DNA from: Bacillota bacterium
Lineage (GTDB): Bacteria; Bacillota_I; Bacilli_A; RF39; UBA660
Length of the DNA: 64,000 nt
Assembly: GCA_015059155.1 (NCBI GenBank)
Contig: SVAX01000001.1
Span: forward strand, 26,247-90,246
Direction: 5' to 3'
Numbering within the stretch: position 1 is the first letter of the stretch; every line of letters starts with the position of its first letter. The translations under genes and the position numbers were made by a program. The notes beneath the pieces were generated by a model. That model did not search any database. It was not told where the DNA came from and saw only the letters and a program-made list of their open reading frames with translations. This document shows positions 5,093 through 49,165 of this stretch, piece by piece.

Positions 5093-5146
5093 AAAAACAC
5101 CTCAATATAGTTTATGAATTAAAGAGGCGTTTGTGTTTTTACTGAT

Positions 5147-5175
5147 TTGACAAATATAATATAATTTATTATAAT
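5147..5175 (+). promoter_or_regulatory. SigA-type promoter of antisense RNA, copy A
   Basis: TTGACA (5147-5152), a 17-nt spacer, then TATAAT (5170-5175). Confidence 0.7.
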
Positions 5176-5181
5176 GTATAT

Positions 5182-5293
5182 AGATGAGGGAAACTTCATA
5201 CAATAAAAAAGGGAATGTTCAGTTTGCTACACTGAATGTCTACCTAAAAGTTTTAGGCGACATTTAAGCTAAATGCTTAAGTGTCATTTTTTT
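5182..5293 (+). ncRNA. Putative antitoxin antisense RNA, copy A (about 110 nt)
   Basis: It starts downstream of the consensus promoter and ends at the terminator hairpin GACATTTAAGC/GCTTAAGTGTC plus T7. It is complementary to the 3' part of the convergent peptide mRNA. Ends are approximate. Confidence 0.55.
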
Positions 5294-5374
5294 ATAGCTA
5301 ATACCAACAAGGTAAGAAGCGATAAAATGATAGAGATGTATCTTAAAATTTTTATTACAAAAATTTTTTTTCAT
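5284..5374 (-). pseudogene. Type I toxin-like peptide gene, copy A, out of frame because of an A8 run after the ATG
   Basis: GGAGGT-N6-ATG at 5374. The frame equivalent to copy B reads IFVIKILRYISIILSLLTLLVLAIKK-TGA but is displaced by +1 from the ATG. With A7 instead of A8 it would read MKKIFVIKILRY... The ATG frame as given encodes a 36-aa peptide, MKKNFCNKNFKIHLYHFIASYLVGISYKKMTLKHLA (5264..5374). Confidence 0.55.
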
Positions 5375-5438
5375 CTTATCACCTCCAATCTTTCAAGATT
5401 AAAGGTAGACACTCTGTAACTGATATTCCCTATTAATA

Positions 5439-5468
5439 ATTATACCATTTGTATATATGCTAAATCAA
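5439..5468 (-). promoter_or_regulatory. Promoter of toxin mRNA, copy A
   Basis: On the minus strand: TTGATT, an 18-nt spacer, then the extended -10 TGGTATAAT. Confidence 0.55.
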
Positions 5469-24884: not shown

Positions 24885-27038
24885 TTATAACATATTTTCT
24901 GAATTTATTCTTATATTATTAATCCCTATTTCAAAATAATTCTCATCTAATTTAGTTCTTTTATAGTCATAAATATACATTAAATTATTTTTGATTTTTA
25001 TTTTATATTTATTATTGAATCTATCAATTAAATAACCTTCATCTACTTTATATTTTTTTAACATATTATATTTACAAACCATTGCTTCTATATTAGCATC
25101 CACGATTACTTCTAAATTAGGATGCTTATTATATCTTTCTTTATAATTGTCTATTAAAATTCTAATTTGTTTATAATTTAATTCATGAGATAAAGTTACT
25201 TTTTTAACACCTAAACTATGTAAAAAAGCAACACTATATGAATTAGTTACATTAAGTGAAAAATCTGTATCCACAGCCTTATATTTATAAACACTACCCA
25301 AATCACTTACAAGTAATCTTTGATTATAAGCACTCAAATGTTCATTAATTCTATCTAACTTTAATACACATTTATCATCATCTATTTTATTGAATTCTTC
25401 AAGATTATCAATATAAATAATATTATATTTATCTTTAACTTTTAAATATTGTTCGTAAGTACTTATTAATATATTTTTATTGTTAGTTTTTTCAAAGTTA
25501 TCCACACATATATCATAAGCTTCTTTTTTATAATTAGTTTTGTACATCCTTGAGAAGTTTAATGTATTCATAACTTCACGTCTTAATTCATTTAATTTAT
25601 TTATTGGTACAAATATACTATCATCTTTTTCTATTTCAAGATTATCAAATTCATATATAGTATCACCTAGTTTGTTTAATTGTTCTTTTATTCTATCAGT
25701 AGTAGTTTCTGATTTTTGAGACTTTTCTACTATATAATCACTATATTTTTCAACTGTATTTTTTGCATCACTAACGATTAATTTTATAGGTTCTCCTACT
25801 TTTAAAATACATTTGCCACTTATTTTAATTTTTCTATCTATTTTTATTTTATCTTCTATTTCTTTTATTTGATTATAATCAGTAGTTTTTAATACAATAG
25901 CATTATTATCAATTGTTTCTTTAAAAGGAATACTAATTATATCACCTTTAAAAGCATTACTTACCCTATTACCATTTTTATACATAATAGTTACAATACT
26001 ACCTGTATCATTTTTACCTATTATCCTTATACCATCATTAATATTTAAATTATCATTTAATTTTATTATAGCTTGTCCTTTTTTATAATCTAAAACAGTA
26101 CCTATTTTAATACCTAAATGATTAGGTCTATATGTATTAACAAATGAATCATTTTCTTCATTAAATAAGAACCCTTTAGTAAACTGTCTATTAAACAACT
26201 TTTTCAAGTTTTTAATATCATTTTCAGTTATTTTTGTTTCTCCATATTTTACATAGTTATCTATAGCTTTACGATAAAGACTTGTTACTAAATATACATA
26301 TTCAGGTCTTTTCATTCTACCTTCTATTTTTAAACTATCTACACCACATTCAATAAGTTCTCCAATATTATCTAAAGTATTTAAATCTTTCGTACTAAGT
26401 AAATATTCATTATTACTAACAAGATCACCATCTATTTCTAAACTATATGGTTGTCTACAACTTTGAGCACATGTTCCACGATTTCCACTTCTATTACCTA
26501 TTAAAGCACTCATTAAACATTCGCCAGAATAACTCATACAAAGTGCGCCATGTACAAATATTTCTAATTCCGCATTTGTTTTATCTTTTATTTCTTTAAT
26601 CAATTCTATAGGAGTTTCACGAGCAAGTACTACTCTTTTTATACCTAACCCTTCACAAAGTTTGACACCTTCTAAATTATGTATATTGGCCTGAGTTGAA
26701 GCATGTATTTCTAAATTAGGATAAGTCTTTCTAACTAAATCTATCATACCTATATCTTGCATTATAACTGCATCTACACCTAATTGGTGTATATAATCTA
26801 TATATTCAATAAATCTATCTACTTCTACATCATATATTAAAGTATTTACAGTTATATAAACTTTAACTCCATACAAATGACAAGTATTAATAGCAATTTC
26901 TAATTCTTCACGAGAAAAATTACCAGCAAAACTTCTGGCACCAAAATTTCTACCTGATAAATAAACTGCATCACAACCTGCATTTATAGCAGCCTTTAAA
27001 CATTCCATATTTCCTACGGGAGCAAGTAACTCTGGCAT
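24885..27038 (-). CDS. Peptidase U32 family protein (long, two-module form)
   Basis: MPELLAPVGN...AGCDAVYLSG N-terminus and an E..VHGALC block typical of U32. I place the start at the ATG at 27038 behind AGGTGA. Confidence 0.8.
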   Translation of the reverse strand: MPELLAPVGNMECLKAAINAGCDAVYLSGRNFGARSFAGNFSREELEIAINTCHLYGVKVYITVNTLIYDVEVDRFIEYIDYIHQLGVDAVIMQDIGMIDLVRKTYPNLEIHASTQANIHNLEGVKLCEGLGIKRVVLARETPIELIKEIKDKTNAELEIFVHGALCMSYSGECLMSALIGNRSGNRGTCAQSCRQPYSLEIDGDLVSNNEYLLSTKDLNTLDNIGELIECGVDSLKIEGRMKRPEYVYLVTSLYRKAIDNYVKYGETKITENDIKNLKKLFNRQFTKGFLFNEENDSFVNTYRPNHLGIKIGTVLDYKKGQAIIKLNDNLNINDGIRIIGKNDTGSIVTIMYKNGNRVSNAFKGDIISIPFKETIDNNAIVLKTTDYNQIKEIEDKIKIDRKIKISGKCILKVGEPIKLIVSDAKNTVEKYSDYIVEKSQKSETTTDRIKEQLNKLGDTIYEFDNLEIEKDDSIFVPINKLNELRREVMNTLNFSRMYKTNYKKEAYDICVDNFEKTNNKNILISTYEQYLKVKDKYNIIYIDNLEEFNKIDDDKCVLKLDRINEHLSAYNQRLLVSDLGSVYKYKAVDTDFSLNVTNSYSVAFLHSLGVKKVTLSHELNYKQIRILIDNYKERYNKHPNLEVIVDANIEAMVCKYNMLKKYKVDEGYLIDRFNNKYKIKIKNNLMYIYDYKRTKLDENYFEIGINNIRINSENML

Positions 27039-27085
27039 AAACATCACCTAGATAATTATAACACACTATTCTTTTATTTAAAAGT

Positions 27086-27114
27086 TTGACAAGCAATATA
27101 TAATTTGTTATAAT
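27086..27114 (+). promoter_or_regulatory. SigA-type promoter of antisense RNA, copy B
   Basis: TTGACA (27086-27091), a 17-nt spacer, then TATAAT (27109-27114). Confidence 0.7.
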
Positions 27115-27120
27115 GAATGT

Positions 27121-27228
27121 GTCAAGGAAACTTGCATATAATAAAAAAGGGAACATTCAGTTTGGTTCACTGAATGTCTACCCATGTGAGTGGACATTTA
27201 AGCTAAATGCTTAAGTGTCATTTTTTTA
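27121..27228 (+). ncRNA. Putative antitoxin antisense RNA, copy B (about 105 nt)
   Basis: It runs from the consensus promoter to the hairpin 27193-27219 (11 bp with one GU) plus T7. It overlaps the last 11 nt of the peptide ORF and its 3' UTR in antisense. Ends are approximate. Confidence 0.6.
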
Positions 27229-27310
27229 TTGCTAATACCAACAAGGTAAGAAGCGATAAAATGATAGCGATGTATCTTAAAATTTTTATTACAAAAATTC
27301 TTTTTTTCAT
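27218..27310 (-). CDS. Type I toxin-like hydrophobic peptide (30 aa): MKKRIFVIKILRYIAIILSLLTLLVLAIKK
   Basis: My own translation. GGAGGT lies 6 nt before the ATG. The peptide has a single TM-length hydrophobic core flanked by Lys/Arg. It has its own extended -10 promoter and a terminator hairpin at 27153-27177 plus a T-run. It is too short for the ORF track. Confidence 0.65.
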   Translation of the reverse strand: MKKRIFVIKILRYIAIILSLLTLLVLAIKK

Positions 27311-27374
27311 CTTATCACCTCCAATCTTTCAAGATTAAAGGTAGACACTCAGCAACTGATATTTCCTATATGTA

Positions 27375-27403
27375 ATTATACCATTTGTATATATAATATT
27401 CAA
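27375..27403 (-). promoter_or_regulatory. Promoter of toxin mRNA, copy B
   Basis: On the minus strand: TTGAAT, a 17-nt spacer, then TATAAT preceded by TGG (extended -10). Confidence 0.55.
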
Positions 27404-27422
27404 GAAAATAAATAAAATTTCA

Positions 27423-27457
27423 CAAAAAACATAAGTTGTCTAGTGTATAGACAACTT
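27423..27457 (-). terminator. Terminator downstream of the deacetylase-like gene (T-runs on both strands)
   Basis: AAGTTGTCTA / TAGACAACTT with a 5-nt loop. Confidence 0.65.
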
Positions 27458-27461
27458 GTTT

Positions 27462-28301
27462 TTATTCTAATATATTCTCTTCTAAATTTGTAAGTTTATA
27501 TCCTTTTGATTTGATATAAATAAGTATAGTAGATAATTCTTTTTTTACCTGTGAATTTATTTTTAAAGAAAGAAGTGAGCCTGATTCTAATTTTGACTTT
27601 ATATCTACTAATGGTGAATTTTCTGAAATTACTGTAGGTTTAATAGTATAATTACTTCTTAATACACACTCATCTAAATTATCTTGATTTTCATTTACAT
27701 TATAACAAAACCCTATACTCTGTTTATTTATTTTTTTTAAAACCATATCCATCCATTCAAAATTTGAATCTCTGTAATCTTCCATTAAAGGAGCAACTAT
27801 ATGACCTTTATTTATCAATTCTTCAACTAAATTATTATTATTACTAAACCAATTGTAACTTACAAAAAAAGTTGATTTTGCATTATAATTGTTAAGTATA
27901 TTTAATAAATCTCTTATATCTTCATCTGATTCTATAGTGAATATTAAACTTACCATTCTTTTACTTGGATTTCCCTTTATTACATATTTATCTATATTAT
28001 CATTTAAACTAATATTAGGTTTGGTATAATCATAAACAAATAATTTATCGCTAAAATATCCATTATCTTTCATAGCTTTATAGCTTTTATTTACATTAAC
28101 TTTTTTAGCACTTACTCCAGGTATTATTATATTATTATCTATTATAGCATCTATTGAGTCGGTCTTATATTCATCTTTTTTAGCTTTTATTTCTATCATA
28201 ATTTCATCCATATCACTTACAACTGTAGCAGTTTGTTCAGTCACAAAAAAACTAAAACAAGTTAAACTAATTAGGCCTATCATTTGAAATGTTTTTTTCA
28301 T
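27462..28301 (-). CDS. Secreted polysaccharide deacetylase-like (NodB-homology) protein; the first catalytic motif looks degenerate
   Basis: Signal-peptide-like N-terminus. Its layout resembles sporulation deacetylases (STFFVSYNWF, NKGHIV), but FTIESDED stands where TFDDG is expected. Confidence 0.4.
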   Translation of the reverse strand: MKKTFQMIGLISLTCFSFFVTEQTATVVSDMDEIMIEIKAKKDEYKTDSIDAIIDNNIIIPGVSAKKVNVNKSYKAMKDNGYFSDKLFVYDYTKPNISLNDNIDKYVIKGNPSKRMVSLIFTIESDEDIRDLLNILNNYNAKSTFFVSYNWFSNNNNLVEELINKGHIVAPLMEDYRDSNFEWMDMVLKKINKQSIGFCYNVNENQDNLDECVLRSNYTIKPTVISENSPLVDIKSKLESGSLLSLKINSQVKKELSTILIYIKSKGYKLTNLEENILE

Positions 28302-29492: not shown

Positions 29493-29762
29493 ATGTATAA
29501 TTCTTATCAAATTCCAGGAAGTTTTAATAATTCTATGAATAGTTCTTTCGATAGTTCTATAAGTAGACCTATAAATAGCAGTTTCGATAGTAGACTTATT
29601 GGTGGTGGATTTGCTGGGCCATTTTTACTTGGAGGTATAACAGGTGGATTAATTTCTCCACTATTTTATGGTAGAAGACCTTACTATAATAATTATTATT
29701 ACTATCCTCCATACCCAAGACCATATCCTCCAAGACCTTACCCACCATACAGACCATATTAA
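29493..29762 (+). CDS. Pro/Tyr/Gly-rich small protein, CotT-like putative spore coat protein
   Basis: Good SD (AAAGGAG) and its own terminator. It has a Gly-rich hydrophobic centre and a tail YYGRRPYYNNYYYYPPYPRPYPPRPYPPYRPY, reminiscent of B. subtilis CotT composition. Confidence 0.45.
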   Translation: MYNSYQIPGSFNNSMNSSFDSSISRPINSSFDSRLIGGGFAGPFLLGGITGGLISPLFYGRRPYYNNYYYYPPYPRPYPPRPYPPYRPY

Positions 29763-29784: not shown

Positions 29785-31217
29785 AGAACAAAAGTCAAAA
29801 TAAATTTTGACCTGCCTAACTTCACAGTTAGGCTTTTCTACTTCATTGAAGTTTTTACTTCTCCATAGACCAGTTTCGGATAGTTGCTACCCTACTTATT
29901 TTTATCTGTCAAAATTTAACTGACTTGCAGTTCTATTCCTTTCCTCATATATATTTTTATTCCTTCAAACATTATATTTATACTTGCATTTATATCTCTA
30001 TTATTAATGTTGGTACAATTTGGACATTCCCACTTTCTTATATTTAAATCTTTCACTTTCTTTTCTTGATATCCACATCTTGAACATATTTGACTACTTG
30101 GATAATATGTTTCTATTTGGTAAAACTTTTTGTTTCTCCATTTACTTTTATATTCTAATTGTCTTATTAGCTCATACCATGATGCATCATATATTTTCTT
30201 TGAAAGATTTTTGTTTTGTACCATTTCATTAATTTTCAATTTCTCTGTTACTATTATATCATTATCAGTAACTAGTTTTTTAGAAATTGAATGTATGAGA
30301 TATTTTCTTGCGTTCTTTATTTTTTTATATACTGTTTGAAGTTTTTTTATTATCTTATATCTATTCTTACTTCCTGGCTTACTTCTTGACAACCATCTAT
30401 TTAATCCTTTTAATTTCTTTTCATATTTTTCTATTATATGTTTATTCTCTATTGTTTCTCCATCACTTGTTATTATTAAATCTTTTATTCCTAAGTCTAT
30501 TCCTATTATTTTTGTAGGGATAAGTTTAGGAATTGTAATATATTGTTCTACACATATACTTACATAATATTTTCCGGCTTCTTTATAAATAGTCGCATTT
30601 ATTATTTTTCCATTTATTTGGTTTAAGTTTCTATATCCTCTAATTTTTACTTCTTTTAATTTAGGTAGTTTTATTACTCTATTTTCTAAATCTATACTTA
30701 TACTATTATAAGTTTTTCCTTTATATGTACTTGTTATATTATTTGTTCTATATGATGGTCTTGTTTTTGTTTTTGATTTAAACTTTGGATATTCACTTAA
30801 TCCTTTACTATATCTTTTAAAACTATCTTCCAAATTAAATATACTACATCTAAGTAAACAGCTATCTACTTCACTTAACCATTCTTTTTCTTTTATTAAG
30901 TTTGGTATTTCTTTTATTACGTTATAACTATTTATATAATTTTTATTTTTACCTAAGAAATAGTTATAGATATATCTAGAACATCCAAAGCTTTTTTCTA
31001 TTAGTTCTATTTGTTTATCATTTGGATATAATCTAAATACATATCCTTTCATTATTTTTTTCATATACCAAACTCCCTTTATCATTAATGTATTAACATT
31101 ATAACAAAAGAACATTTGTTTGTAAATGAAATTTATGTGAAACTTTTATGAAATTACCAAGCACTTTCCTATTATATAAAAAAAGTTATAAACTTGCATC
31201 AAAATATAAACTGCATC
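29785..31217 (-). mobile_element. IS200/IS605-family element of the IS1341 type (tnpB only, no tnpA); boundaries approximate
   Basis: A TnpB ORF with structured ends: hairpins CCTAACTGTGAAGTTAGG and GTCAAAATTTATTTTGAC downstream of tnpB, and TTGAT pentanucleotides at the left end. It is wedged between two terminators. Confidence 0.65.
29916..31064 (-). CDS. tnpB: TnpB (OrfB) RNA-guided endonuclease-like transposon protein
   Basis: MKGYVFRLYPNDKQIELIEKSFGCSRYIYN N-terminus, RuvC-I GIDLGIKD, the zinc finger CSRCGY..CPNC, and RuvC-III NRDINASINI. I place the start at the ATG at 31064 behind AAGGGAG, because the TTTACA-17-TATAAT promoter lies inside the longer track ORF. Confidence 0.85.
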   Translation of the reverse strand: MKKIMKGYVFRLYPNDKQIELIEKSFGCSRYIYNYFLGKNKNYINSYNVIKEIPNLIKEKEWLSEVDSCLLRCSIFNLEDSFKRYSKGLSEYPKFKSKTKTRPSYRTNNITSTYKGKTYNSISIDLENRVIKLPKLKEVKIRGYRNLNQINGKIINATIYKEAGKYYVSICVEQYITIPKLIPTKIIGIDLGIKDLIITSDGETIENKHIIEKYEKKLKGLNRWLSRSKPGSKNRYKIIKKLQTVYKKIKNARKYLIHSISKKLVTDNDIIVTEKLKINEMVQNKNLSKKIYDASWYELIRQLEYKSKWRNKKFYQIETYYPSSQICSRCGYQEKKVKDLNIRKWECPNCTNINNRDINASINIMFEGIKIYMRKGIELQVS

Positions 31218-42924: not shown

Positions 42925-42999
42925 TGGAGCAAGTGACCGGGATCGAACCGGCATCCTAGCCTTGGCAAGGCCATATACTAACCATTGTACTACACCTGC
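42925..42999 (-). tRNA. tRNA-Gly (anticodon GCC), CCA encoded
   Basis: Manually folded cloverleaf: acceptor GCAGGTG/CACTTGC, D arm GTAC/GTAT, anticodon arm TGGCC-TTGCCAA-GGCTA, and T arm GCCGG-TTCGATC-CCGGT. Confidence 0.85.
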
Positions 43000-48670: not shown

Positions 48671-48744
48671 TGGAGGGCCTAGTCGGATTTGAACCAACGA
48701 TCAGGGAGTTGCAGTCCCACGCCTTACCACTTGGCTATAGACCC
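48671..48744 (-). tRNA. tRNA-Cys (anticodon GCA), CCA encoded
   Basis: Manual fold: acceptor GGGTCTA/TAGGCCC, anticodon loop CTGCAAC, and T arm GTTGG-TTCAAAT-CCGAC. Confidence 0.8.
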
Positions 48745-48822: not shown

Positions 48823-49165
48823 TGGTGGAGCCGAGGAGAATCGCACTCCTGTCCAAATACACTAACACAATAACGTCTACAAGTTTAGTTGATTAATAAA
48901 TGTCCTATTAAATACGTTAATCAACAAACAATTTAATAGTAAGTCTATATTATTCGTTATTATTTATAGACATCATAATAATATATCCTACTCATTCGAG
49001 CCTCATATAAATCTCGTAGGAAAAGATTTACTGAAGCAGCCTTCTATTTATCTTAAGCGAAAGCTAATTGATTTCTGTTTCCAGTTATTTTATTTTGGGA
49101 TTTGACGTATCACCTTACGACTTGCGATTAGAGCTCAAGTATACCTGTCGAAACTAGACGGCCCC
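48823..49165 (-). ncRNA. ssrA: tmRNA (SsrA)
   Basis: 5' end GGGGCCGTCTAGTTTCGACAGG and 3' end GGACAGGAGTGCGATTCTCCTCGGCTCCACCA, which is tRNA-Ala-like. The internal tag frame ends ...GGA AAC AGA AAT CAA TTA GCT TTC GCT TAA (…GNRNQLAFA stop). Confidence 0.9.

Follow-up and report, generated by a model that had tools for sequence, protein, structure and literature searches.

What is encoded in the gap between a U32 peptidase gene and a polysaccharide-deacetylase-like gene, at positions 27048-27461 of a 64,000-nucleotide (nt) stretch of contig SVAX01000001.1 from a Bacillota bacterium (the whole stretch is referred to below as the window)? An original prediction, read from the letters of this DNA, placed here an unannotated module resembling toxin-antitoxin (TA) systems of type I, with a gene for a 30-amino-acid (aa) hydrophobic peptide convergent with a gene for an antisense RNA. 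Our structural and comparative analyses indicate that the gap very probably holds a conserved module of two RNAs and one small peptide, and that this module is likely to work as an autonomous type I TA-like pair, the latter view being drawn from predicted transcripts, their folds and their conservation. By its predicted architecture the module founds a new sequence family within a kind already known, the Gram-positive type I TA systems with 3' overlap, and is not a new kind of system. Every sequence element listed in the original prediction was located again at its coordinates. The copy in this gap, copy 1, is laid out as follows, with ORF denoting the open reading frame and SD the Shine-Dalgarno sequence.

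27403..27375, minus strand: toxin-gene promoter motif, -35 TTGAAT, 17-nt spacer, extended -10 TGgTATAAT
27368..27142, minus strand: predicted toxin mRNA, ~227 nt, ends set by promoter and terminator motifs
27366..27354 and 27352..27340, minus strand: 5' arm of the 5'-3' fold-back, GGAAAUAUCAGUU and CUGAGUGUCUACC
27342..27317, minus strand: anti-SD/SD hairpin, ACCUUUAAUCU / AGAUUGGAGGU, 11-12 bp with a UGAA loop
27322..27318, minus strand: SD GGAGG, within the anti-SD/SD hairpin
27310..27218, minus strand: 30-aa ORF MKKRIFVIKILRYIAIILSLLTLLVLAIKK followed by TGA, opened by GGAGGT-N6-ATG
27220..27218, minus strand: TGA stop of the 30-aa ORF
27182..27170 and 27162..27150, minus strand: 3' arm of the fold-back, GGUAGACAUUCAG and AACUGAAUGUUCC, taking in the mRNA terminator hairpin
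27178..27152, minus strand: toxin-mRNA terminator hairpin, followed by the U-run 27148..27143 (CCCTTTTTT; CCCUUUUUU)
27086..27114, plus strand: antisense promoter TTGACA-17-TGtTATAAT, perfect 12/12 consensus
27121..27228, plus strand: predicted antisense RNA, ~105-108 nt, ends from motifs
27123..27134, plus strand: antisense 5' hairpin CAAG-GAAA-CUUG, followed by an A-rich linker
27149..27183, plus strand: antisense hairpin 2
27193..27227, plus strand: antisense terminator, 11-bp hairpin 27193..27219 and T7 at 27221..27227, overlapping the toxin TGA stop
27082..27055: promoter-like site of the U32 gene's own, downstream of the module
27431..27459, both strands: bidirectional-terminator-like palindrome separating the module from the deacetylase stop, a 12-bp hairpin flanked by T-runs on either side
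24885..27047, minus strand: U32 peptidase gene, one flank of the gap
27462..28301, minus strand: polysaccharide-deacetylase-like gene, the other flank

The original prediction had named the minus-strand extended -10 promoter (TTGAAT-17-TATAAT, here with its TG), the GGAGGT-N6-ATG opening of the ORF, the plus-strand consensus promoter (also with a TG), the hairpin and T7 across the toxin stop and the terminator of the toxin mRNA, and all of these are present. It had expected the two RNAs to be complementary over about 85 nt at their 3' ends; by coordinates, this complementarity is complete and runs over the last ~86 nt of the toxin mRNA, from the last Lys codons through the stop codon and the post-ORF hairpin to the mRNA terminator. 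At the end of the ORF, the Lys-Lys codons and the TGA are complementary to the U-tract and stem base of the antitoxin terminator, which would account for the invariant Lys-Lys-stop end.

Could such features meet by chance? Within the 1.5 kb surrounding the locus there are five terminator-like sites where 0.3 would be expected. Perfect TTGACA-N17-TATAAT promoters occur at 2 sites in the 64 kb against 0.03 expected (0/100 shuffles), and both are the antisense promoters of module copies. When the two predicted RNAs were folded, a check that the original prediction had proposed, both came out unusually stable, with a minimum free energy of -68.1 kcal/mol (z = -7.4) for the minus-strand RNA and of -34 kcal/mol (z = -5.1) for the plus-strand RNA. 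Terminator density, promoter rarity and fold z-scores are together not explained by chance.

The repeated unit and its neighbours

The window contains the module twice, the second copy having the following parts.

5138..5458, minus strand: second module copy, 88.6% identical to copy 1
5147..5175, plus strand: copy-2 antisense promoter, perfect consensus
~5184..5295, plus strand: predicted copy-2 antisense RNA
5447..5439, minus strand: copy-2 toxin -10 box
5374..5372, minus strand: copy-2 ATG
5370..5284, minus strand: copy-2 hydrophobic peptide frame, out of frame with the ATG

A BLAST comparison of the unit with the window matched copy 2 at 5146..5458 (88.6% identity over 317 nt, same orientation), and the family hidden Markov model (HMM) detected no third copy in the window. 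Homology between the two copies starts at the toxin -10 box and stops at the antisense -35 box, so that the repeated unit is exactly the module from promoter to promoter. In copy 2, A8 stands in place of A7GAA after the ATG; this frameshift cuts the hydrophobic frame off from its start, and the product read from the ATG is a 36-aa non-hydrophobic peptide. The same allele recurs in four independent metagenome assemblies and is therefore real and fixed. The copy-2 antisense promoter, antisense RNA and terminator are all intact. Copy 2 may represent an orphan antitoxin that has lost the toxin frame and kept the antisense gene, and the fixed loss of its peptide frame is an indirect hint that the peptide might be toxic. 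Separately, one metagenome scaffold (L004, 3616-4121) joins the flanks of copy 1 to copy-2-like sequence through a run of Ns; it is a chimera, and the two module copies form a repeat that misleads assembly.

How widely is the unit distributed? Exact look-ups of the 30-aa peptide and of overlapping spurious ORFs gave nothing, and a metagenome DNA scan with an SD-hairpin pattern returned only six unrelated, higher-GC contigs. Entry to the family came from a phmmer search of 1.84 billion representatives, which gave one match, a 42-aa protein (P0001). Used as the seed of a homologous-protein search, this protein led to three more proteins and their contigs, and alignment of three lineages provided an invariant block in the ORF that became the scan pattern TNAGATACATYKCTATCATTTTRT. 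Scanned with this pattern, the GTDB species representatives yielded 24 loci, all in metagenome-assembled genomes (MAGs), and further copies were found in metagenome contigs. The 24 MAG hosts have 22-29% GC, are labelled Bacilli, Erysipelotrichaceae, Tenericutes or Clostridium sp. CAG:433, and derive from goat, deer, rabbit, mouse or human gut or rumen. The conserved unit measures ~310 bp and is bounded by two convergent sigma-A-type promoters. The window's host was encountered only in metagenome contigs; in those of the same species (L001-L008) the gap is 100% identical and hence uninformative. The original prediction had called for such a search to establish family membership and copy number; besides the 24 MAG loci and the second copy in the window, the family HMM revealed that L035 and L024 contain additional copies, tandem or partial.

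The wider sampling bears on another interpretation, in which the element is a cis-regulatory leader or attenuator of the U32 gene, or the 3' untranslated region (UTR) of the deacetylase gene, and the ORF is a leader peptide or a product of chance. The position of the module in the window would suit it, on the same strand as both genes and between them, with a terminator ahead of U32, and the original prediction had named such a leader or 3' UTR as one outcome that would refute it. In other genomes, however, the flanking proteins differ from locus to locus, except in two pairs of near-identical genomes, and the downstream gene is on the opposite strand at about half of the loci. Within the window, copy 2 lies upstream of a Mur ligase gene, the deacetylase gene has its own bidirectional terminator (27431..27459) and the U32 gene its own promoter-like site (27082..27055). 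Because of the unrelated flanks and opposite-strand downstream genes, the module is neither the U32 leader nor a 3' UTR; we regard that interpretation as hardly credible.

Some of the neighbourhoods deserve mention in their own right. The module adjoins defence-island-like genes at L017/L018 (2046-6413; TelA, an AAA/nSTAND3 ATPase and a YhcG/DUF1016 nuclease) and, at L022 (5470-6423), a gene for a 317-aa reverse transcriptase (RVT_1), again defence-island-like. At L002 (4264-6418) the U32 peptidase gene is split into pieces of 386 and 228 aa, possibly a pseudogene or an assembly error.

The encoded peptide

Is the 30-codon ORF a gene? One may consider the unit as a repeated non-coding element, either a small-RNA pair or a miniature mobile element, in which the ORF is incidental. 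This would agree with its repetition within and between genomes, with its sharp homology boundaries and with the fact that no gene caller picked the 30-aa ORF in the host contigs, where it is as unannotated as originally described. The pattern of substitution points the other way. Despite many substitutions, the length of ~30 aa and the start and stop positions are kept in nearly all homologues from ~25 species, with the consensus MKKRIFIIKVLRYIAIILLLLTLLVIVIKK (M[KN]KR.F[IV]IK[VI]LRYI[AS]IIL.LL..L[VI]..IKK). When 26 distinct ORFs are compared, 17, 12 and 23 of 30 sites vary at the first, second and third codon positions, respectively (3>1>2), and the pooled ratio of nonsynonymous to synonymous polymorphism (pN/pS), 0.41 in the ORF frame, rises to 0.76 and 1.23 when the sequence is read in the two alternative frames. 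Within the core, residues are exchanged conservatively among I, V, L, F and M, and an SD is conserved 7-10 nt from the start codon. Given the kept length, the pN/pS and the codon-position variability, we conclude that the ORF is coding and under purifying selection.

Two divergent paralogues that adjoin the main copy, at L045 (542-855, minus strand) and L042 (6353-6683, minus strand), place another short hydrophobic ORF in the same position, which adds to the case against a non-coding repeat and leaves that explanation with only a very small share of our belief. These paralogues keep the antisense promoter, the 5' hairpin, the U-run, the terminator scaffold and a 5'-3' helix of different sequence, and they encode peptides of 27 and 23 aa (MNKKDFLILALVIIIFLLLLLLFITLI and MKYFLILSLIIIYLLTHCLTFYF). 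The RNA scaffold is thus older than this particular peptide, and the paralogues suggest a wider superfamily with putatively exchangeable toxin cassettes.

The window peptide has a single hydrophobic core of transmembrane (TM) length, whose hydropathy reaches a maximum 19-residue Kyte-Doolittle mean of 2.61, and it carries a net charge of +7. Type I systems call for a hydrophobic peptide of fewer than 60 aa that has a predicted TM helix and comes from a selected ORF, and the module supplies one. Exceptions to this form are informative: in one lineage A6 replaces A7 before the TGA, yielding a 42-aa peptide with an acidic tail; the L041/L044 peptides are two residues longer; the L047 ORF is frameshifted; and the loci in L028, L029 and L038 are rearranged.

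We considered that TGA might be read as Trp (genetic code 4) and rejected this; TGA ends 7/45 long ORFs of the window and read-through adds almost no coding length, so TGA is a genuine stop in the source organism. A JGI gene call at L022 (5001-5152, P0003) does read TGA as Trp, giving a 46-aa product (…AIKKWHLIHQKMN); this product is not obtained from L022 under table 11, and the call was apparently made with code 4 or by a caller that ignored the stop.

Predicted RNA structures and a model of their action

In most members of the family, a toxin promoter TTGnnn-17-(TG)TATAAT lies at a constant 9-11 nt from a conserved GGAA 5' end, and an antisense promoter TTGnnA-17-TGnTAtnAT keeps a constant spacing to the antisense 5' hairpin, the latter promoter usually being nearer consensus than the former. 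The module therefore has, as a predicted transcript, the complementary antisense RNA encoded in cis, with its own promoter and terminator, that distinguishes type I systems.

Two folds of the toxin mRNA are predicted to be repressive, one sequestering the SD and the other joining the 5' and 3' ends. The stem over the SD described in the original prediction is a local hairpin that pairs the SD in 24/24 family sequences (mean z = -3.6), with anti-SD arms that vary between CCUCU..AGAGG, CCUUUAAUCU..AGAUUGGAGG and AAAUCUCU..AGAGAGGGGGUUU. The hok-like fold-back proposed from the complementarity of GUGUCUACC and GGUAGACAU turned out to be part of a longer helix of 2 x 13 bp in which the very beginning of the mRNA pairs with the two arms of its terminator: the first ~27 nt, GGAACAUUyAGUUGyUGAGUGUCUACC, are complementary to these arms (GGUAGACAUUCAAC...AAACUGAAUGUUCC). 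Covariation supports it. On the family alignment A5, the 26 pairs of this helix are 90.3% standard pairs and nine have compensatory changes (28 cells), values reached in 0/500 shuffles and compared with 33-48% in slid controls, and RNAalifold finds the same helix in A5 independently. Column 244 covaries with 5' UTR column 14 (GC 18, UA 3, AU 2), while terminator column 233, its putative partner, is mostly unpaired; the outer 7 bp of the mRNA terminator are conserved. RNAalifold also proposes a start-codon helix pairing GAUA..AUG with ACAU..UAUC (codons 13-16), which is invariant and partly forced by the scan pattern, and to which we give no weight.

The antisense RNA follows the same three-hairpin plan in individual folds of nearly all members: a 5' hairpin of 4-6 bp at the predicted start, hairpin 2 closed by GGG/CCC, and a long terminator hairpin with U6-7. 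Its A-rich linker is complementary to the mRNA U-run. Since MAFFT misplaces the 5' hairpin and the inner terminator stem, we used a covariance-model alignment instead; the model (R1) was built from ten sequences, and its 26 matches, taken at a stricter threshold against weak opposite-strand matches, form alignment A8. Here 94.6% of cells are paired and 17/28 pairs are compensatory (59 cells), against 0/500 shuffles and 29-41% in slid controls, and the compensatory changes of the inner terminator stem and the 5' hairpin are visible by eye all the same. At several positions about half of the sequences have U.G pairs (for example 110/143: UG 13, CG 11) that would be C-A mismatches if read on the minus strand, and the terminator region is more stable on the plus strand in 18/23 cases. 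Such plus-only U.G pairs and the greater plus-strand stability mean that a plus-strand RNA is under selection.

Based on these structures, we propose that the full-length mRNA would fold into a compact, stable and poorly translated form, and that the SD hairpin would limit translation of nascent and free mRNA. The strong antisense promoter would keep the antitoxin in excess. Pairing of the two RNAs may nucleate at complementary loops, between hairpin 2 and the mRNA terminator loop and between the antisense terminator loop and the post-ORF hairpin, after which the antisense RNA would zip into a ~86-bp duplex over the mRNA 3' end and destroy the mRNA terminator together with its 5'-3' clamp. The duplexed mRNA could then be degraded by RNase III as well as by other RNases or exonucleases, as in txpA/RatA and bsrG/SR4. 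Should antisense synthesis stop, leftover mRNA would be translated and the peptide would insert into the membrane, causing arrest or death.

What might the clamp contribute? The 5' arm of the mRNA has the sense of antisense hairpin 2, an element of the original prediction that held, and since both bind the same 3' sequence, the mRNA 5' end and the antisense RNA must compete. The closed form may serve as a protected reservoir, as it does for hok or aapA1. It is conceivable, if rather doubtful, that an imitation of the antitoxin is built into the toxin mRNA, whose first ~27 nt, of the same sense as hairpin 2 and directed at the same 3' target, would make a closed form both silent and shielded from the antitoxin, and a nascent or opened form would be captured. 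Were this true, it would constitute a new regulatory logic that combines a hok-type fold-back with the Gram-positive 3'-overlap design, in a clade of uncultured gut Bacilli from which no type I TA is known.

Probable toxin-antitoxin function and known systems

Does the peptide act as a toxin? The coding ORF and the conserved antisense RNA would fit equally well a real gene pair with another purpose, for instance one whose peptide regulates a membrane complex or is a leaderless product, secreted or antimicrobial, and whose antisense RNA tunes the peptide level, and the failure to find the module on mobile elements is in keeping with this. Against such a role stands the threefold repression predicted for the peptide, by the SD hairpin, by the 5'-3' clamp and by a consensus antisense promoter facing a weaker sense promoter. 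So do the tandem copies, divergent paralogues and scattered loci with unrelated neighbours, and the fixed frameshift of copy 2, which kills the peptide only and leaves the antisense gene. Moreover, no conserved partner, transporter or immunity gene adjoins the module at the family loci compared. Because such traits are typical of type I toxins, we favour a type I toxin over a housekeeping small protein, and a non-toxic function seems improbable to us.

Several considerations weigh against assigning the module to the type I class, or reduce the force of the evidence for it. Profiles of named toxin families (TxpA/BsrG, Fst/Ldr, Hok, Ibs, TisB and others) did not match the peptides, and an Rfam cmscan of 26900-27600 on both strands at E<=10 gave unrelated sub-threshold matches only and no antitoxin family (RatA, SR4-like, RNAII/par, Sok, Sib, SprF or others); because no known toxin or antitoxin family matches, class membership follows from architecture alone. 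The transcript ends on both strands come from sequence motifs alone. Three mismatches interrupt the outer half of the 5'-3' helix in copy 1 and make this copy a weaker example than the family consensus. The antisense promoter of L041/L044 and of L022 is weak or unrecognisable. Since the scan pattern lies inside the ORF, it makes codons 12-19 and the predicted start-codon helix look more conserved than they are, and alignment A8, being fitted to its model, favours pairing. Finally, the module was not found in viral contigs (two pattern scans), phages (blastn) or plasmids (tblastn), unlike the many Gram-positive type I systems that reside on phages or plasmids.

Other collections were equally silent. 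In Pfam the window peptide had no match at E<=0.01 and nine family members had nothing relevant at E<=10; NCBIfam gave nothing above noise and neither PADLOC nor PHROGs a match for the family peptides. Across the whole window, only the transfer-messenger RNA (tmRNA) and tRNAs reached an Rfam gathering score. The literature searched contained neither the peptide motif nor any type I TA system linked with Erysipelotrichaceae. Separately, the hairpin at 27431..27459 has a sub-threshold Rfam match to RefA9, an Enterococcus small RNA (26.9 bits, where the gathering score is 49; E = 0.07); we take it as chance.

How does the module compare with characterized systems? TxpA and BsrG measure 59 and 38 aa, against 30 aa for the module peptide, and the antitoxins of txpA/RatA and bsrG/SR4 act by duplex formation and RNase III-dependent decay. 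The module has a conserved 26-bp clamp from the 5' end to the terminator, and we know of no such clamp in txpA or bsrG. The original prediction had likened the module to these two systems; the comparison holds for the layout and fails for sequence homology, as neither the peptide nor the RNAs resemble theirs, and the module lies outside any recognisable prophage. The shared layout consists of convergent RNAs, with the antisense RNA over the mRNA 3' end including the end of the ORF (PMC8594479, PMC6563280), a small single-TM peptide with charged ends and a partly or fully sequestered SD. The module conforms to the Gram-positive type I families whose antisense RNA overlaps the mRNA on its 3' side, and to the rule of SD sequestration (PMC8594479, PMC6563280), and the predicted RNAs of the module (27121..27228 against 27368..27142) have the 3'-overlap arrangement of TxpA/RatA, BsrE-G-H, YonT and SprG/SprF (PMC8594479).

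With hok/Sok and with AapA1/IsoA1 of Helicobacter pylori, the module shares an mRNA closed by long-distance 5'-3' pairing and a sequestered SD (PMC8594479). In those systems, however, the antisense RNA is directed at the 5' or translation-initiation region and an anti-SD may be 3'-terminal, whereas the antisense RNA of the module would target the 3' end that the mRNA 5' end binds, and its anti-SD is local. The module also lacks a mok-like leader ORF, and it occurs in Bacilli of Gram-positive type. Fst/RNAII (par of pAD1) and SprA1/SprA1as resemble it in their convergent RNAs with a shared terminator region, 5' stem-loop over the SD and antisense RNA on the 3' side (PMC8594479), as well as in a ~30-aa peptide with a charged end. 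Their functional interaction takes place outside the overlap, at the mRNA 5' region (PMC8594479), whereas the antisense RNA of the module is of the same sense as the 5' UTR instead of complementary to it. The modules of Clostridioides difficile (CD2517.1-RCd8 and others) are comparable as small hydrophobic toxins of low-GC Firmicutes with cis-antisense antitoxins, present in multiple copies per genome and without homology to Bacillus or Staphylococcus toxins (PMC6563280). They differ in that their toxins have 34-59 aa and charged C-terminal tails and that many are carried by prophages or adjoin CRISPR arrays and are served by SigB promoters (PMC6563280), none of which was seen for the module; sequence similarity to them was not detected.

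Elsewhere in the window, a TnpB gene of the IS200/IS605 family (29916..31115, minus strand; HTH_OrfB_IS605, OrfB_IS605 and Cas12f1-like_TNB domains) sits three genes away from the module. It is found at 238-1386 in L001-L003 and is absent between the pseudouridine synthase and 89-aa genes of L004, which has the same deacetylase protein, so the insertion appears to be polymorphic among strains. In the 89-aa ORF (29493..29762, plus strand), an N-terminal part rich in Ser and Asn gives way to a Gly-rich middle and then to a tail rich in Pro, Tyr and Arg (…RRPYYNNYYYYPPYPRPYPPRPYPPYRPY); gene callers picked up this ORF in every same-species contig, and Pfam has no match for it. The tmRNA gene (48823..49165, minus strand; 142 bits), the adjoining tRNA-Cys(GCA) gene (48671..48744, minus strand) and a tRNA-Gly(GCC) gene (42925..42999, minus strand) are ordinary.

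What is the relevance of this small element? To our knowledge, annotations of type I TA loci are very rare, and such families as are known stem from a small number of cultured model organisms. The present family is well delimited, with a peptide consensus, both predicted RNAs and structures supported by covariation, and it comes from uncultured, very AT-rich Bacilli of gut and rumen, for which the literature searched offered no type I system and in whose MAGs a covariance model together with an HMM could annotate the element. Its natural variants, whether intact, tandem, carrying a divergent putative toxin, C-terminally extended or frameshifted, offer useful material for working out how 5'-3' clamping and antisense targeting of the 3' end may act together.

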